Shown: in pieces, positions 8,878-46,747 of the stretch
Layout: each line of letters begins with the position of its first letter
How positions within the stretch are numbered: the first letter of the stretch is position 1
IMG/VR virus record: IMGVR_UViG_3300045988_113737
Source of the DNA: a virus
Direction: 5' to 3' (one strand)
DNA: 46,747 nt
Program-made: the position numbers and the translations under genes
The notes under the pieces: model-generated
Seen by the model: the letters and a program-made list of their open reading frames with translations, nothing else
Database searches by the model: none
What the model was told of the DNA's origin: nothing

Positions 8878-9003
8878 AAGGGAAAACCTCTTTTCTTTAT
8901 ATATTCCGCTCCATTTTCCCGGCGTGGCCTTGATACGCCGAAATGCGTATTTCTCCGGCCTTGCGTGGGAAAAGTGCGGGGGTTCAATTTTCAAGGTACA
9001 ATG

Positions 9004-9090
9004 TCAAGTGTTTTATTGATGTTTGCATTATATCAAGCGTTTTATTGATTGTCAAGCGTTTTATTGAAAATTCTTCAATTATTTTATTGA
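9004..9090. promoter_or_regulatory. Four 16-nt operator-like repeats TCAAGCGTTTTATTGA
   Basis: Copies at 9004..9019, 9033..9048, 9052..9067 and a degenerate one at 9075..9090. They flank or overlap the -35/-10 of the promoter. Confidence 0.6.
9027..9055 (-). promoter_or_regulatory. Consensus sigma-70 promoter of the small-gene operon
   Basis: Minus strand TTGACA-17 nt-TATAAT (9055..9050 / 9032..9027). Confidence 0.65.
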
Positions 9091-9192
9091 CGCTTTACCG
9101 TGTCCAACAATTCAAGAGAAAATGAACATATACCAGAGGCGGATGGCTCCGGCCCATCTGCCCGGACACCTTCTGCCTGATCTGGGTATAAG

Positions 9193-25416: not shown

Positions 25417-25434
25417 CCGCCCCTTCCGGGGCGG
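25417..25434 (-). promoter_or_regulatory. GC hairpin downstream of VR2 (DGR target-recognition-type element)
   Basis: ccgcccc-ttcc-ggggcgg, 20 nt past the stop codon. Same sequence as 35956..35973. Confidence 0.7.
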
Positions 25435-25453: not shown

Positions 25454-26269
25454 TTAAACGCAGAAGCCGAAGGACACACCATACGAGATGCTGGCGCCGT
25501 TATTGTTGGCGTCACCCGAGGCGTCCACAGGGCAGAAACTGGTGGTGTGGTCGCTACGAGGCGAACGCTCCCACCGCCAATCCCGCTCACCGTTCTGCTT
25601 GCACTTTCCGTATTCGGTATTCTCCTGACGATACCAGTCATACCACTTGCCTTCTCCGCCGATAGAGTAAATCTTCCGGCCAAAAATCTCCTGCTCGGAG
25701 AGGATAAACAGAGGATCAGAGGTCATCCCGATCTTCTGACTACCACCGCCCAGACAGGTTTCCTTCAAGCAAGGTTTGATGACACTGAGTAAATCGTCAG
25801 GAAGCAGTTCGATGATGGAATTGTTCAACATCTTGCGGAGCTGAGAATTCTGCCAACCACCCTTGTTCGTGTATTCCGGGTTCATCTGAAAATCATCATT
25901 GAGGGTTTCCACCGTTTCAAAGCTGATCGGGAGGATATTGCTGTGCTTGTCTCTATCATGATTGAAACCGATGATACGGACATGAATGGTGGTGCCATCT
26001 TTCAGCTGCACCGTCTTGGTATCACCCAGAGAGAAAACCTTATCGGCCATTCCGCTCTTGCCGTACATATCAATCTCGGCCCAAGAGCAATCGTCCAGTT
26101 TCATCTTCGGGAGATCAGGAATACCGTAAATCCGGCCATCGGCGGGAACCTTGCAACAGGGACAAACAGGAGGCTTCTGCATGGAGGCAATGACTTCTTT
26201 CTGGTAATTGATCGTCCGCTCCATGCGGTCAAACTCAGCTGCAAGCTGGGAAAATACATTCTTATTCAT
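25454..26269 (-). CDS. DGR target protein 2 (remote variable protein)
   Basis: C-terminus WRWERSPRSDHTTSFCPVDASGDANNNGASISYGVSFGFCV is encoded by VR2. Body is homologous to 35993..37138. Confidence 0.85.
   Translation of the reverse strand: MNKNVFSQLAAEFDRMERTINYQKEVIASMQKPPVCPCCKVPADGRIYGIPDLPKMKLDDCSWAEIDMYGKSGMADKVFSLGDTKTVQLKDGTTIHVRIIGFNHDRDKHSNILPISFETVETLNDDFQMNPEYTNKGGWQNSQLRKMLNNSIIELLPDDLLSVIKPCLKETCLGGGSQKIGMTSDPLFILSEQEIFGRKIYSIGGEGKWYDWYRQENTEYGKCKQNGERDWRWERSPRSDHTTSFCPVDASGDANNNGASISYGVSFGFCV
25460..25575 (-). repeat. DGR variable repeat VR2
   Basis: Gap-free alignment to TR 35343..35458. 16 of 17 mismatches are at TR plus-strand T (coding-strand A). Confidence 0.85.
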
Positions 26270-29418: not shown

Positions 29419-29430
29419 GAGGTGTGCTGT

Positions 29431-31086
29431 ATGAAGAAGTTCAAATTCCCCATCGACCTGTCCATGCTGACAGAGGAAGAGATCAACCAATTCCGGGAAG
29501 ACCCCTCCACTCTGTTTCAAGGCGAGATTGATGTATGTCTTTACCTCCGGTTTAGTTCAGAACGGCAAAAGGAACAGTCTATTGAAGGACAGCTACGGGA
29601 CTGTATAGCCCATTGCAAACGGAAGAGTTACCGAATTGTAGCCATCTTCGTTGACCGTGCTACCACGGCCCGAAAAGATGTAGAGAAACGAGTCCACTTC
29701 CAAGAGATGATTACGGCCAGCGTACACCAGACATGGAAACTGGTCATCGTGTGGAAACTTGACCGCTTTGCCCGGAACCGGGAAGATAGTGCCGTCTTCA
29801 AAATGAGGCTCAGGAAGAACGGTGTCAAGGTTGAATCCGCCACCGAAGGTATTTCCAAAAACCCGGAAGGTATCATCTTGGAAGCCGTCTTGGAGGGTAT
29901 TGCTGAATACTACTCCGCTGACCTCTCCCAGAAGATCACCCGAGGCATGAGAGAGTCCGCTTTGAAGTGTCACAGCATAGGAGGCCATGTTCCCCTCGGC
30001 TACAAGATTGAAGATCACAGACTGGTCATCAATCCCAATACCGCTCACATTGTCCAGGAGGCTTTTGAACTCTATGCCAATGGAGAAACCGTGGCCGATA
30101 TTTGCCGTATGTTCAACACAAAAGGCTACCGGACAGCCAAGGGAGCCGAATTCAACCGGAACAGTTTCAAATCCATGTTCCGAAACAAACGGTATATCGG
30201 GGTCTATACCTACAAAGAGATCGAGAAGGAAGGTGGTGTTCCAGCGATCATCGACAAGGAACTATTTGAAACCGTCCAAAGACGGCTCTCAGCCAATGCA
30301 GAAGCCCCGGCAAGGGGCAAGGCTAAGGTAGATTACCTCTTGGCCGGAAAACTGTTCTGCGGCCATTGTGGAGGCTCTATGAACGGGGAAAGCGGCACCA
30401 GTAAGACCGGAGCCATTCACCATTATTACTCTTGTTATTCAAGAAAGCGACACCACTCTTGCGATAAGAAGCCTCTCAGGAAAGAGTGGATTGAACAGAT
30501 CGTGGCTCAGGACGCTATGGAGCTGCTGACCGATGACGCTATTCAGGAAATGGCTGATATGGCAATCTCCCAAACAGAAAAGGACTTGCGGGAAAATACT
30601 CGCATTCCTGAACTGTCCGAAAGGATGAAGGAAACTGAGAGCGGTATCGCCAATATCACAAAGGCCGTGGAGAAAGGCATTGCCTCTGACGCTCTCATGA
30701 GCCGTCTGGTGGAACTGGAAAAGGAAAAGAAAAATCTTCTCCGGTTGATAGCCGAAGAAGAAAAGTATGTCTGTAAAATCGACAGAGATCAGATTGTCTA
30801 TTGGCTTACCAAATTCAAGAACGGCAACATTGAAGACGAGAACTTCAAGAGGATTATCATTGATCTCATGGTAAACTCAGTCACAGTATGGGACGAGCCT
30901 GACGACTTCCGTATTACCACCGCATATAATCTAACCTCCTGCAAAAACAAGACTTTCCGAATACCCTCTTCCTCTGATAAGGGGTTCGGATTTGAGGGGT
31001 TAGAGTCCACCATTGAACGCAAATCCGAACCCTGCTTTGTGTGGGGGACGATTTTCGTTCAAACAAAAAGACACTCCTTGCCGTAA
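29431..31086 (+). CDS. Large serine recombinase (integrase)
   Basis: Catalytic LYLRFSSERQ, resolvase plus recombinase domains, zinc ribbon CGHCGG...CYSRKRHHSC, coiled-coil C-terminus. Confidence 0.9.
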   Translation: MKKFKFPIDLSMLTEEEINQFREDPSTLFQGEIDVCLYLRFSSERQKEQSIEGQLRDCIAHCKRKSYRIVAIFVDRATTARKDVEKRVHFQEMITASVHQTWKLVIVWKLDRFARNREDSAVFKMRLRKNGVKVESATEGISKNPEGIILEAVLEGIAEYYSADLSQKITRGMRESALKCHSIGGHVPLGYKIEDHRLVINPNTAHIVQEAFELYANGETVADICRMFNTKGYRTAKGAEFNRNSFKSMFRNKRYIGVYTYKEIEKEGGVPAIIDKELFETVQRRLSANAEAPARGKAKVDYLLAGKLFCGHCGGSMNGESGTSKTGAIHHYYSCYSRKRHHSCDKKPLRKEWIEQIVAQDAMELLTDDAIQEMADMAISQTEKDLRENTRIPELSERMKETESGIANITKAVEKGIASDALMSRLVELEKEKKNLLRLIAEEEKYVCKIDRDQIVYWLTKFKNGNIEDENFKRIIIDLMVNSVTVWDEPDDFRITTAYNLTSCKNKTFRIPSSSDKGFGFEGLESTIERKSEPCFVWGTIFVQTKRHSLP

Positions 31087-33168: not shown

Positions 33169-33636
33169 TCAGCCCTCCCATTTCTGCCAAGCGGCGGCGT
33201 AATCTCCGGGGCTATAAGCAGTCCCATTCGGGTCAATACACTCGTAGATATTCCCGTCCGTCCATACCATAAACTCTCCCTGGCGGTACATATCATGTGC
33301 GCCCTGAACAGGAACATAGGGACGGGCCGTGTCCGGGCTTTTGCCATGCAGAGGCCGGTTGAAGGTGTACCATGCGGCATTTCCGGGAACAATGTCCGGG
33401 TACACCGCATTGTCGTAAGCCTGAAAACACTCCCAGGTCTGCTCCCATTCAGAGCCAAGGCCGTCCCCGGCATGGGTGTTGAAAATTTCTCCGACAGTGT
33501 GATTTCCTTTCACCCAATCGAGGTAAAGCCCGGAAGCCTTGATCTTCTGGTCATCGTCCTCAACCTGTTTCCCTTCCAGCATGAGCCGGGACATATAAAT
33601 TGCACTGGACAGAGCGTTCAACATTTTCTCGTTCAC
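33169..33636 (-). CDS. Hypothetical protein (155 aa)
   Basis: Track ORF. Aromatic-rich. Confidence 0.55.
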   Translation of the reverse strand: MNEKMLNALSSAIYMSRLMLEGKQVEDDDQKIKASGLYLDWVKGNHTVGEIFNTHAGDGLGSEWEQTWECFQAYDNAVYPDIVPGNAAWYTFNRPLHGKSPDTARPYVPVQGAHDMYRQGEFMVWTDGNIYECIDPNGTAYSPGDYAAAWQKWEG

Positions 33637-33935
33637 AGAGATAACCCCCTCTCGATTGCCGCCGCAATAGCGTCCACATCGGCCTGTTCTGCCTTGCCTT
33701 TAAGAATGGCCTCTTGCTCCTTCTGGTAGGCAACCTCGCTGATCGTGGTCACGCTCACGGTTTCTTTTCCTTCCAGTTCACTCCTACCCTCAATGTGGTA
33801 CACAGACCCCTCGATCACAATGCCGTGTGCCTGTTCCTCTGTGCATAGGCCGTAGCACCCGTTGTTCTGCATTTTGACCCACACAGGGGTTGTCACCGTT
33901 GCCAGAGGTGTTCCATCTTTGAGAATTCGATACAT
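33633..33935 (-). CDS. Hypothetical protein (100 aa)
   Basis: Track ORF. Overlaps the low-complexity 3' tail of the RT ORF. Confidence 0.5.
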   Translation of the reverse strand: MYRILKDGTPLATVTTPVWVKMQNNGCYGLCTEEQAHGIVIEGSVYHIEGRSELEGKETVSVTTISEVAYQKEQEAILKGKAEQADVDAIAAAIERGLSL

Positions 33936-35079
33936 TTCTTTCCCAGCCTTTCTTGTTCGGATAGAAGCCGAACATGAATTTGAAATACTGATTGGTGTTC
34001 TCTCGCACCTTAAAACTGTTTCCTCGCTTCATGTGCCCGTGATAACTCTCTACGGAACTCCGAATGTCCGCAACCGTCATCTCACCTCTTTCCCACTTTC
34101 CATGAAAGGTTCGCAGCTTACGCCGAATGATCTTGGTAGAGTCAGGGTTCATCTTCAAAATGACCTTGCCGCTCGAGGTGAGAATGAATTTGGTCTTCAA
34201 CCACCGGTAGAAATCAGCCAGCGGAATAACCCGAGTTTTCTTCCAATTTAGCCGCAGACCTAACTTCCGGGTCATCTCTTCCAGCCCAAACATTCCTTCG
34301 GTTCTGAGAAAATCAATGTCCTCATGAATGGCATATCCATCGTCCATATACCGGGCGTAGCCTTTAATACGAAGTTTTTCCTTGAAATAGTGGTCAATCG
34401 GACTTGGAAGAAGCAGGGCATTTGTCTGAGAGATTTGACTTCCAAGCCCTAAGCCCACTGGCCCGAAATCCGCAATGAAGCTGTCATGCAGGGAGCGTAC
34501 ACGGTCATCATGGAGCCGCCGCTTTGCTTCCGCAGCTAAGGGGTCATGTGGTGCTTCATCGAAATAACTCTTGAAGTCAAAAATCAGAATGCCACCGGCC
34601 AGACCATGTTTCCGATAGTGCTTCTGCAAGTGGCAGATCATACGCCGCAGGGCGAAGTCCATACCACGGTGTTTCAAACTGGCCGAGTTGTCATAGATGA
34701 AAGAAGATGAATAAATCGGAACAATGCAGTAATCGCACAGGCACTTTTGCACGGCCCGTTCTGTGATATGGACAGAGCGGATATACCGTTTCTTACCACG
34801 CTCCATGATGGTGAACTCATGGAAGCCACGGTGGTAGAAATTACCCTCGTTCAGCGATCTCGCTGTCAGGGCAATGTTCGGGATGATATTGCCGATATAG
34901 CGTTGTGTAGAAGATTTCCAATAAACACCTTTACAGCACTTCTTTCCCGAAAGATATAGGTGTCGAAAAGAAAAGACCTCTTCAAAATCCCCACAGGCCA
35001 TACTTCGCTTTCTGCGAGCCTCTTCCCGTTTGGCCTTTCTTCTTTGATAACGGATTTCTCTTCTCTCCGCACTGGTCAT
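33790..35079 (-). CDS. DGR reverse transcriptase
   Basis: LGSQISQ (LGxxxSQ) and YMDD motifs. Start MTSAERRE after GGAGGG. Immediately downstream of TR. Confidence 0.9.
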   Translation of the reverse strand: MTSAERREIRYQRRKAKREEARRKRSMACGDFEEVFSFRHLYLSGKKCCKGVYWKSSTQRYIGNIIPNIALTARSLNEGNFYHRGFHEFTIMERGKKRYIRSVHITERAVQKCLCDYCIVPIYSSSFIYDNSASLKHRGMDFALRRMICHLQKHYRKHGLAGGILIFDFKSYFDEAPHDPLAAEAKRRLHDDRVRSLHDSFIADFGPVGLGLGSQISQTNALLLPSPIDHYFKEKLRIKGYARYMDDGYAIHEDIDFLRTEGMFGLEEMTRKLGLRLNWKKTRVIPLADFYRWLKTKFILTSSGKVILKMNPDSTKIIRRKLRTFHGKWERGEMTVADIRSSVESYHGHMKRGNSFKVRENTNQYFKFMFGFYPNKKGWERNVSNSQRWNTSGNGDNPCVGQNAEQRVLRPMHRGTGTRHCDRGVCVPH

Positions 35080-35342
35080 GAAAAAGATTTCCCTCCGTAC
35101 AGTATGATTGTGGGGTACGGGTTCTAACTGCGTAGTAATACCAGCCATGAAATGAGCTACCGTACAATCACTCACCATGCAAGAAGCGTCCGGCTGATTA
35201 CATCGGAGTGCCCCTTTCGGGGAGGGCGCATTTCAAACGATGTGCCCGGAAGTTTTAGCCAATAGGCAGGGTACAAGTCCTCCCTCTGCAAAAGGTACTG
35301 ATTTCACCCAATGGGGTTACTACGACTGACCTATACGAAGTT

Positions 35343-35473
35343 GCAGAGTCCGAAGGACACACCATTCGAGTTGCTGGCGTTGTTATTGTTGGCGTTACCC
35401 GAGTTGTTCACATTGCAGAAATTGTTGGTGTTGTCGCTATTAGGCGAACGCTCCCACCAGTTGTTCGCAGAAC
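35343..35473 (-). repeat. DGR template repeat (TR)
   Basis: 131 nt homologous to VR1 and VR2. Coding strand is rich in AAC/AAT. Followed by a structured spacer (ccccgaaagggg). Confidence 0.9.
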
Positions 35474-35512
35474 AGGCAAGGTTTAACAGGACTTGACCCA
35501 TATTAGAGAAAA

Positions 35513-35941
35513 CTAATCAGGAAGGTCTTTATACCTTTTCCGATCAGATTTCTTCACACTGGAAATCAGCTTGGCTTCATCTACGATATACTCTCCGAAC
35601 TCCTGAATAGCGTGGTCAATCCAAGGGTACTTTTCTGGGTTTTGGAGAATAGCGTCATAGAGAAGGGCTAACTTCGGACTGAGGTTTTGCAGGGCAATAT
35701 TGGCTCTGGTAAGACAGTCCCGGCGCATTTGTGCTTCATGCTTGTTTGTGGGGTAGATGTTATTGGCCGCTCTCACCTCGTCATGAACCGTAGAACACAG
35801 GTGCATGATCGGATAGAGAAGGTATGGGCCGTACCTTTTCGGTGCTTTGGTGACTACGGAGAAAGCGTGAAGTTCCAATCTCCTTGCGGTTTCAATGAAC
35901 TGCACATTGCTTTCTCCCCGCATAAATTTTGGGACTGACAT
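35513..35941 (-). CDS. avd: Accessory variability determinant (Avd-like four-helix-bundle protein)
   Basis: 142-aa helical basic protein between the target gene and TR, the canonical DGR position. Confidence 0.7.
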   Translation of the reverse strand: MSVPKFMRGESNVQFIETARRLELHAFSVVTKAPKRYGPYLLYPIMHLCSTVHDEVRAANNIYPTNKHEAQMRRDCLTRANIALQNLSPKLALLYDAILQNPEKYPWIDHAIQEFGEYIVDEAKLISSVKKSDRKRYKDLPD

Positions 35942-35955
35942 TTTACCCTCCTACA

Positions 35956-35973
35956 CCGCCCCTTCCGGGGCGG
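35956..35973 (-). promoter_or_regulatory. GC hairpin downstream of VR1
   Basis: ccgcccc-ttcc-ggggcgg, 20 nt past the stop codon. Identical to 25417..25434. Confidence 0.7.
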
Positions 35974-35992
35974 GATTTTTGTGGATGACAGA

Positions 35993-37138
35993 TTAAACGC
36001 AGAAGCCGAAGGACACACCATACGAGGAGCTGGCGGCGCTAAAGTTGGCGTCACCCGAGTTGTACACACTGCAGAAATAGTAGGTGTTGTCGCTACAAGG
36101 CGAACGCTCCCACCAGCTGTTCGCAGAACCATTGACCTTTTTGATCGTGGTGTTTCCAGCGGCATAATACTCATACTGAGTACCTTCACCAGCAAAAGAG
36201 TAGGTGGTAGCACCGAAAATCTCAATCTCAGACAGCAGGAACAACTTATCCTGAGTAGTCTGGATAGAAGAGGACTGATTGCCAGCGGAAGTCCGCTTAT
36301 TGACCGTCTTGATGACATTTCGCAGAGCCGCAGGGAGTTGACCCAGATAGGTACTCATACGGCTACGCATGGCAGAACTGTTCCAGCCACCGGCGTTCGT
36401 GTTAGAGCTGTTCATGTTTGCAGTCTGATTGAAGCAGTCCACAAGCTGGAAGGTGATACCGGCCATTCCACCAGAAGTCAACTGATCGTGGTCAAAGCCG
36501 ATAATCTGAACCTTGTAGTTCGTACCGTTAATGCTGACGGTCTTCTGATCGCCCACGGAGAAATAATTCTTGGCCTGTCCGAACTGAGAACACAGAGCGA
36601 TTTCAGACCAATCGGTCTGCTCCAAGGTGCCCGTGATATTGAAGGGGTAGACATACACAATGCCAATGACTTCCAGCGTATAGGTCTTGGTCTTCTGAGA
36701 GCCGCCGTAGGTGTATTTGATAGACCAATCTCCCAGCTCGGCGGGATAGAGAACGGCTTCTCCACCAGAGGCCACAGCGGAAAGAACAGTGTCCCCCTTG
36801 GTCATGGTGACGGTGGTGCCGTTATCGGCATAGACATGGCACTCAGCCGGAGAACCCTTCTGGCTCAGGGCGTAGAGAGCGTCATTCACCGTGGGGTCAG
36901 CCCCATCCAGTTCCAGTGCCGCTTTCGTAGTGTCATCCAGCAGATTTGCTTTACTCAGAGGTGTTCCCACCACATCACAACCGGCGTTTGCACCGGTGGT
37001 GTCGGTATTTAGAACAACATCTAAGTAGCCGTTTCCGGCGATCAGCTGTTGCCTCCATTCCTCGAAGGTAGCAGGCATATCGGAAGGTGCCCGAATAATA
37101 CTGGATTTTCCGTTGCCTTTGATGGTGGTGTCTTTCAT
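35993..37138 (-). CDS. DGR target protein 1 (tail fibre / receptor-binding candidate)
   Basis: Last gene of the tail module. C-terminus WWERSPCSDNTYYFCSVYNSGDANFSAASSSYGVSFGFCV is encoded by VR1. Confidence 0.85.
   Translation of the reverse strand: MKDTTIKGNGKSSIIRAPSDMPATFEEWRQQLIAGNGYLDVVLNTDTTGANAGCDVVGTPLSKANLLDDTTKAALELDGADPTVNDALYALSQKGSPAECHVYADNGTTVTMTKGDTVLSAVASGGEAVLYPAELGDWSIKYTYGGSQKTKTYTLEVIGIVYVYPFNITGTLEQTDWSEIALCSQFGQAKNYFSVGDQKTVSINGTNYKVQIIGFDHDQLTSGGMAGITFQLVDCFNQTANMNSSNTNAGGWNSSAMRSRMSTYLGQLPAALRNVIKTVNKRTSAGNQSSSIQTTQDKLFLLSEIEIFGATTYSFAGEGTQYEYYAAGNTTIKKVNGSANSWWERSPCSDNTYYFCSVYNSGDANFSAASSSYGVSFGFCV
35999..36129 (-). repeat. DGR variable repeat VR1
   Basis: Gap-free alignment to TR (offset 656). 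17 of 18 mismatches are at TR plus-strand T (coding-strand A). Confidence 0.9.
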
Positions 37139-46577: not shown

Positions 46578-46747
46578 TTAACCCGCAGAACCACCGGGGA
46601 AGTCAGCCGCATTCGCCACATACACGCTACGGCTGTAAGTGGGAGCGGTAAACTCGGTAGAGATACCGGTAAACTTGCCGTGATACCACTCGGGGCCGTG
46701 GTCAAGGCCGATCTGACCGAAGAGCTGATACTTCTCACCAGCACCAA
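46578..46747 (-). CDS. Major capsid protein, C-terminal end (continues from 1..902 across the junction)
   Basis: ...GQIGLDHGPEWYHGKFTGISTEFTAPTYSRSVYVANAADFPGGSAG-TAA (stop at 46580..46578). The track ORF 46565..46747 is in a different frame. Confidence 0.8.
   Translation of the reverse strand, partial: GAGEKYQLFGQIGLDHGPEWYHGKFTGISTEFTAPTYSRSVYVANAADFPGGSAG
46693..46747. repeat. Terminal 55-nt direct repeat, copy 2
   Basis: Identical to 1..55. Confidence 0.95.

Follow-up and report, generated by a model that had tools for sequence, protein, structure and literature searches.

The viral DNA IMGVR_UViG_3300045988_113737 of the IMG/VR collection (46,747 nt, referred to as the window in its full length) carries what we read as a complete diversity-generating retroelement (DGR), with the core of accessory gene avd, template repeat (TR) and reverse transcriptase (RT) of Bordetella phage BPP-1 (architecture B of Wu et al.), a reading to which we give a probability of about 0.93. 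This reading is carried directly by the anatomy of the cassette, by mismatches between the TR and its variable repeats (VRs) that are specific to template adenines, by TR-to-VR concordance at natural non-adenine variants of the template, and by a recent turnover of VR sequences among close relatives. An earlier interpretation of the same DNA, made from the letters alone (the original prediction), had proposed this element between positions 33790 and 37138. All of its coordinates and its minus-strand order hold against the list of open reading frames (ORFs) and direct sequence checks, and the elements assigned to that span are there, but the cassette is larger than was thought and includes a second target about 10 kb away. 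The features are the following, IMH standing for the initiation of mutagenic homing sequence:

35993..37138, minus strand: target gene T1, ORF of 381 amino acids (aa), last gene of the tail module
35999..36129, minus strand: VR1, 131 nt, T1 codons 338-380, ungapped match to the TR
35991..36019, minus strand: IMH-like 3' end of VR1, GGTGTGTCCTTCGG-CT-TCTGCGTTTAATC
35956..35973, minus strand: GC hairpin/cruciform CCGCCCC-GGAA-GGGGCGG, 25 nt after VR1, with a 7-bp G+C stem and a GGAA loop
35513..35941, minus strand: Avd-like accessory gene, 142 aa, isoelectric point (pI) 9.06
35343..35473, minus strand: template repeat TR, 131 nt, 38 adenines, 16 AAY codons in the VR frame
35080..35342, minus strand: spacer between TR and RT, 263 nt
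35071..35334, minus strand: RT-2 RNA, Rfam RF03077, full-length match of 152.3 bits
33790..35079, minus strand: reverse transcriptase, 429 aa, with LGSQISQ at aa 212-218 (34426..34446) and YMDD at aa 244-247 (34339..34350)
25454..26269, minus strand: second target gene T2, 271 aa, DUF6273 paralogue of T1
25460..25575, minus strand: VR2, 116 nt, TR offsets 15-130, at the end of T2
25417..25434, minus strand: second hairpin copy, 25 nt after VR2, identical in sequence to the VR1 hairpin

At the level of the repeats, the similarity between TR and VR1 survives a formal ungapped alignment over 131 nt, which returns the 18 mismatches of the original prediction, 17 at TR adenines and a single C-to-T change at offset 125 (window position 35348). 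A scan of the whole window for copies of the TR yielded one more besides VR1, at 25460..25590, so that the second VR previously mentioned in passing does exist. Since this copy is homologous to the TR only from offset 15 onwards, VR2 proper corresponds to 25460..25575, and it departs from the TR at 17 positions, 16 of them adenines, the other being the same fixed C-to-T change at offset 125. Upstream of offset 124, all 16 mismatches of VR1 fall on A, a base that makes up 37 of the 124 in that interval (chance p ~4e-9), and upstream of the IMH all 15 mismatches of VR2 do so too, with A accounting for 33 of 109 bases (chance p ~2e-8). Outside the terminal IMH block, neither the comparison of the TR with VR1 nor that with VR2 holds any mismatch at a base other than adenine. 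The changes at offsets 124 (A to C) and 125 (C to T) are identical in 32/32 distinct VR copies, a constancy that is partly by construction because the 29-nt anchor used to retrieve these copies contains the CT, and this identity marks both positions as fixed differences between the IMH and its counterpart in the TR (IMH*) and not as products of mutagenesis. Accordingly, the lone non-adenine exception at 35348 is one of these fixed differences, and the earlier count of 17 adenine mismatches in VR1 is right as a count but has to be divided, leaving 16 mutagenic and 2 fixed changes.

The design of the template fits its position at the end of a coding sequence. Both VRs stop 3 nt short of the stop codon and, read in the VR frame, the TR contains 11 AAC and 5 AAT codons that hold 32 of the 37 adenines located upstream of the IMH differences; 12 of these Asn (AAY) codons are recoded in VR1. 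Adenine mutagenesis of each AAY codon makes 15 amino acids reachable and no stop codon, and the 16 AAY codons together with five single-adenine codons of the TR allow ~7e21 protein variants at the C-terminal surface of the DUF6273 domain. The TR sits as well within an Asn-rich ORF of 56 aa (…NNFCNVNNSGNANNNNASNSN…) at 35331..35501 on the minus strand, which is probably a by-product of the AAY codon design and not a gene.

The adenine specificity was also measured beyond the window. A search pattern consisting of the TR with N at its adenines is circular for this purpose and was replaced by a search of viral and metagenome contigs with the 29-nt IMH anchor, which is blind to the variable part and which returned the 32 distinct VR copies from public collections. 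Cognate comparison was possible in 13 genomes that carry the TR and one or two VRs on the same contig, giving 19 TR/VR comparisons in which 324 of 326 mismatches are at TR adenines. Expressed as rates, mismatches affect 324 of 628 adenine positions versus 2 of 1526 other positions (Fisher p 3e-203), and the two remaining ones, at thymines in the relatives L009 and L012, are the only cognate mismatches that speak against a strict specificity for adenine. The TR itself is 98.5-100% identical in 9 of the 11 related genomes holding one, and 93% identical in L003 and L026; the VRs differ. Natural variants of the TR reappear unchanged in the cognate VRs, as one-way transfer from TR to VR predicts. 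This is the case for A69C in L007, for G106T and T112C in an Oscillospiraceae prophage (L014), whose cognate VRs mirror both variants, and for the TR shared by L003 (TR at 8993-9101) and L026, in which ten adenines are replaced and each replacement matches the cognate VR base. This last template looks like the outcome of partial TR decay, of VR-to-TR conversion or of self-homing, and the loss of ten adenines would lower the diversification capacity of the elements that carry it.

The enzyme of the cassette belongs with the RTs of DGRs. RTs of this clade carry the motif-4 signature [ILV]GxxxSQ together with YxDD, and the LGSQISQ and YMDD motifs named in the original prediction are both present. 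The protein matches Pfam RVT_1 and PHROG 1423 (E 7e-68), and profile and structure-database comparisons place it with DGR RTs and not with group II intron or retron RTs, as had been proposed. Among 177,635 distinct sequences of solved structures, its sole significant match is the BPP-1 enzyme bRT (8ub7; 60.6 bits, E 1.5e-15); of the other solved-structure RTs a group IIC enzyme comes next with 13.5 bits, and retron RTs are absent from the matches up to E = 10. In agreement with this placement, the NCBIfam group II model TIGR04416 gives 43 bits versus a cut-off of 300, and Rfam scans of the window detect neither a group II intron RNA at gathering thresholds nor any retron RNA family. By BLASTP the RT is 26% identical to Brt (E 2e-18), with LGSQISQ aligned to IGSLTSQ and YMDD to YMDD. 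Its relatives in phages include the enzymes of Roseburia phage Shimadzu (42% identity), of several Faecalibacterium phages (28-36%; 30-42% over Shimadzu together with Pioen, Roos, Taranis, Lelie and CP11) and of nd4/nd12 (~29-33%), followed by others from Vibrio, Bordetella and Bacteroides phages. The stretch of the final 48 RT codons (33790..33935) is shared with the following ORF of 100 aa (33633..33935), which is read in a different frame; the PHROG profile covers the RT up to aa 380, yet in MT837512, the nearest relative, the RT frame is open as far as aa 421.

The spacer that separates the TR from the RT, which had been described as structured and non-coding, turns out to be a named RNA family. 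It gives a full-length match to the orphan Rfam family RF03077 (RT-2 RNA), at 152.3 bits where the gathering score is 40 (E 3e-37), in a match that begins 9 nt past the TR and reaches the RT start codon, with the ribosome-binding site of the RT (GGAGGG) contained in the 3' strand of the long-range RT-2 helix. The arrangement recurs in four relatives, namely Shimadzu, Faecalibacterium phage Pioen, MT837512 and the Oscillospiraceae prophage, where RT-2 lies 5-9 nt after an adenine-biased TR and directly before the RT. The Rfam matches in relatives are the following:

L035, 3685-3908: RT-2
L036, 3790-4010: RT-2
L037, 6101-6326: RT-2
L014, 9747-10009: RT-2

BPP-1 has a different family at that position, RF03022 (Phage_DGR), which corresponds to motif RT-10 in the work of Weinberg et al.; these authors speculated that further RT motifs act in other DGRs (PMC5737381). 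A search of the literature found no paper naming RT-2 as a DGR RNA. By position and by analogy with BPP-1, RT-2 is probably the priming or scaffold RNA of this lineage of Clostridia-phage DGRs, structurally distinct from the BPP-1 DGR RNA.

The assignment of the 142-aa ORF as Avd is made with moderate confidence. It lies between the target and the TR, and its pI of 9.06 falls within the range reported for Avds, which are very poorly conserved proteins with a pI of 9.5 +/- 0.7 (PMC5758913). The PHROG family 'Avd protein of DGR' matches this protein at E 1e-3 and 26 of the 29 members of its family (best E 7.5e-7), and an hhalign comparison with the annotated Avd of Shimadzu extends over the full length with a probability of 90.7% (E 1.3e-6). 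The AlphaFold2 (AF2) model is a four-helix bundle with a mean predicted local distance difference test (pLDDT) score of 81, and its top Foldseek matches are structures of the Avd family (2gsc, 8ube_D, 2rld and 4dwl), with probabilities of 0.9-1.0 and TM-scores of 0.5-0.74. Several observations pull in the opposite direction. The E-values of these structural matches are weak (0.14-0.8), the protein has no Pfam hit and no sequence or profile match among solved structures, and hhalign and hidden Markov model comparisons of the family with BPP-1 Avd reveal no similarity. Pfam scans of all 29 family members gave noise only, one of them matching bAvd at E 0.095. The label given in the original prediction is thus backed by the PHROG family, the Shimadzu profile and the fold, and finds no backing in Pfam or in BPP-1 Avd.

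Regarding the signals that would direct the homing, offsets 110-123 (GGTGTGTCCTTCGG) constitute a 14-nt block devoid of adenine that is common to the TR and both VRs. Past this block both VRs continue as CT..TCTGC (GTTTAATC) and the TR as AC..TCTGC (AACTTCGT), the TR diverging after CTGC, and VR1 and VR2 end in the same 29 nt. The sequence that ends both VRs is best read as IMH-like, with its TR counterpart as a candidate IMH*. Both hairpins lie exactly 25 nt after their VR and none follows the TR, while the 25-nt linker between VR and hairpin differs between VR1 and VR2. Besides these two, neither strand of the window contains a perfect G+C stem of 7 bp closed by a GRNA loop, and their DNA fold is close to -11 kcal/mol. 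A hairpin/cruciform of the target site was defined experimentally in BPP-1 and found in other phage DGRs as well, where it lies 4-34 bp from the VR and consists of a GC stem of 7-10 bp capped by a GRNA loop (PMC3240598), and the stem, loop and spacing observed here fall within those limits. The hairpin was also considered as a plain sense-strand terminator and discarded as such, given that a T-run is present only at the VR1 copy, on the antisense strand, and none is found at the VR2 copy. In the distant relatives L033 and L023 the stem is retained with a GTAA or GTCA loop instead of GRNA; in L010 a poly-C/poly-G run, probably an assembly artefact, occupies the place of the hairpin.

Taken by analogy with BPP-1, these parts would operate together in the following way. 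A complex of RT and Avd would bind an RNA that extends over the TR and the RT-2 spacer next to it and would copy the TR faithfully except for the insertion of random nucleotides opposite adenines, and the resulting complementary DNA (cDNA) would then replace the homologous VR of a target gene. Targets would be marked by the IMH at the 3' end of the VR and by the GGAA-loop GC hairpin 25 nt further on, both of which T1 and T2 carry; the TR, with neither IMH nor hairpin, would consequently stay unchanged. These biochemical steps, like the priming or scaffold role of RT-2 and receptor binding by T1, are proposed from homology and position.

The identity of the ligands that the targets bind is the part of the interpretation most exposed to an alternative. 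The C-terminal part of T1, which carries VR1, matches Pfam DUF6273 (aa 237-377, E 2.3e-18), as does T2, and the two proteins are 44% identical over 227 aa (T1 aa 159-381 versus T2 aa 45-271), preceded by N-terminal segments of 158 aa in T1 and 44 aa in T2. No annotated protein is related to T1 over its N-terminal 158 aa, for which the phage collection yields a single unannotated fragment. The label 'fibre-like' or 'receptor-binding' for T1 is suggested by the position of the gene, downstream of tape-measure and major tail genes, and by the 30% identity (E 1e-13) of its C-terminal half to orf22 of Shimadzu, a DGR target annotated as 'tail fibre protein'. It is conceivable that the DGR is real but that T1, T2 or both are not host-receptor-binding tail fibres and bind something else, a less probable reading that nevertheless deserves serious weight. 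Mucus or host-surface glycans, through a Hoc-like adherence, are possible ligands, and T2 might bind an intracellular or non-virion ligand early in infection. This alternative draws on the sole named PHROG match of T1, 'Hoc-like head decoration' (E 1.4e-11, over the DUF6273 part), on the lack of a virion-attachment domain in T2 and its location among early genes, and on the literature, in which it has been left open what small DUF6273 targets and paired targets do (PMC10743442, PMC11792537). It is opposed by the tail-fibre position of T1, directly after the tail genes, by its homology to the Shimadzu target and by the precedent of BPP-1 Mtd as a receptor-binding target. In the VR domain, T1 is modelled poorly by AF2 (mean pLDDT 54, with values under 50 across aa 277-349 and for much of the C-terminus besides) and T1 has no sequence similarity to Mtd, so that a C-type lectin fold, as others have modelled for DUF6273 DGR targets (PMC10743442), is no more than a candidate here; a profile search of T1 against solved structures found nothing. 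T2, ~10 kb away from the TR, belongs to the early/replication block and not to the structural module; it has genes for a Holliday junction resolvase, helicase, methyltransferase and DNA polymerase as neighbours, and is at most a putative virion protein. The more specific proposal that T2 is not a virion receptor-binding protein and acts as an early-expressed soluble binder of a variable host or competitor molecule is rather unlikely; if true, one TR would diversify two functionally distinct proteins.

A separate question is whether the element still works. In the contigs L031 and L032, T1 upstream of the VR is changed at 0-1 of 1009 nt relative to the window and the downstream DNA at 8 of 2300 nt, and 21 of the first 110 positions of VR1 are different, all at TR adenines. 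These counts come from an anchored, ungapped comparison, since BLAST identities of VRs are confounded by cross-matching between TR and VR, and downstream counts for L016, L029 and L021, which indels inflate, were ignored. The combination of near-isogenic flanks with a different VR1 indicates very recent activity of the element in this lineage. For this particular genome, activity is suggested by the same comparison between samples, and this indirect route is a point in favour of regarding the cassette as a relic of past DGR activity with no present diversification, as is the TR with ten lost adenines in L003 and L026, which implies that decay occurs in the lineage. We consider the relic very improbable, because near-isogenic contigs carry a wholly different VR1 beside almost identical flanks and because every part is intact in the window, including an open RT with both motifs, the 38 TR adenines, perfect IMHs and hairpins and a full-length RT-2. 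Finally, the notion that the ends of T1 and T2 and a pseudogene fragment mistaken for a TR are ordinary duplicates diverging by normal mutation or recombination, beside an unrelated group II intron or retron RT, could appeal to the true paralogy of T1 and T2, to the small ORF around the TR and to the weak NCBIfam group II match, but deserves practically no credence in the face of mismatches that are adenine-specific and one-directional, a group II score far below its cut-off, an Rfam scan of the window that finds only RT-2, and BPP-1 bRT as the sole significant solved-structure RT match. A complete DGR is the interpretation that we retain, none of the three observations that could have overturned it (non-adenine mismatches outside the IMH block, an RT grouping elsewhere and a vanishing TR/VR alignment) having gone against it.

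The genomic context is that of a gut phage. The ends of the window share an exact 55-nt direct repeat (1-55 and 46693-46747), which identifies the window as a circularly closed assembly of a phage genome of 46,692 bp. Along the minus strand, major tail and tape-measure genes are followed by three tail genes, T1, the DGR, holin-like genes and the endolysin; next to the endolysin comes a serine integrase on the plus strand, and beyond it the early genes for T2, resolvase, helicase, methyltransferase, DNA polymerase, Erf, exonuclease and primase, with terminase and portal last. An RT with 99% protein identity is encoded in a 230-kb contig of Oscillospiraceae bacterium CM18GR_63, where 9.6 kb around that gene have 96% DNA identity to the window. 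This near-identical RT with its flanking DNA identifies the host of the siphovirus-like phage as a gut bacterium of the Oscillospiraceae and its lifestyle as temperate. The homology of the window to L014, the Oscillospiraceae prophage, ends at window position 30999, inside the 3' end of the integrase ORF (29422..31086), and the end of homology in the bacterial contig adjoins a tRNA gene and a signal recognition particle (SRP) RNA gene (L014 14071-14435); the phage attachment site is probably located at that end (~30999). GenBank phage DNA similar to the window is limited to one unannotated fragment of 7.9 kb (76%).

The comparison with known systems begins with BPP-1, with which this element shares the order of target (mtd in BPP-1), avd, TR, spacer RNA, RT (brt) and lysis genes, a VR at the 3' end of a 381-aa target, TR and VR lengths of ~131-134 nt, adenine-specific mismatches, an IMH/IMH* difference, a GC hairpin with a GRNA loop after the VR, a homologous RT and a small, basic accessory protein, here predicted to form a four-helix bundle. 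It differs in the spacer RNA (RF03077 RT-2, with a 222-nt model, instead of RF03022, with a 127-nt model), in an Avd and a target without detectable sequence similarity to BPP-1 Avd or Mtd, in a target domain of the DUF6273 and not the Mtd type, in the presence of a second, non-adjacent target, in the distance of 25 nt from VR to hairpin, in an RT that is ~100 aa longer and in a Gram-positive gut anaerobe as host.

Closer counterparts exist among phages of gut bacteria. Shimadzu has the same order of tail fibre, Avd, TR, RT-2 RNA, RT, lysis genes and integrase, and both Shimadzu and the Faecalibacterium phages Pioen, Roos, Taranis, Lelie and CP11 possess DUF6273 targets with the VR at the C-terminus. 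In Lelie the TR serves one VR beside the RT and a second one in a 215-aa ORF ~16 kb away in the early region, comparable to T1 and T2, whereas its adjacent target is downstream of the RT and its VR is internal. The host family, Oscillospiraceae, and the genome set the present phage apart from Shimadzu and the Faecalibacterium phages. In nd4/nd12 one TR also serves two VRs (PMC10743442), but their targets are a tentaclin and a DUF6273 protein ('tgt2'), whereas no tentaclin (N-terminal lectin domain, then immunoglobulin (Ig) domains) is found here, and the two targets are paralogues of the DUF6273 type, the second of them located away from the cassette. The core found here, avd-TR-RT directly preceded by a target, is the commonest DGR architecture, and targets elsewhere in a prophage have been documented (PMC5758913); DUF6273 targets and 'large plus small' target pairs have likewise been published for Faecalibacterium phages (PMC11792537). 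As the same layout has been published for Faecalibacterium and Roseburia phages, the element is of an already known kind, a DGR type that is common and well known in gut phages, and it leaves the knowledge of DGRs unchanged. Its value is that of a clean natural example, in which one TR, two targets and two perfect targeting signals are accompanied by many near-isogenic relatives. It could serve as a reference case for the DGRs of Oscillospiraceae phages, could link the Rfam RT-2 RNA to a function as the TR-adjacent RNA of DGRs, and could open the way to the role of small, remote DUF6273 targets.

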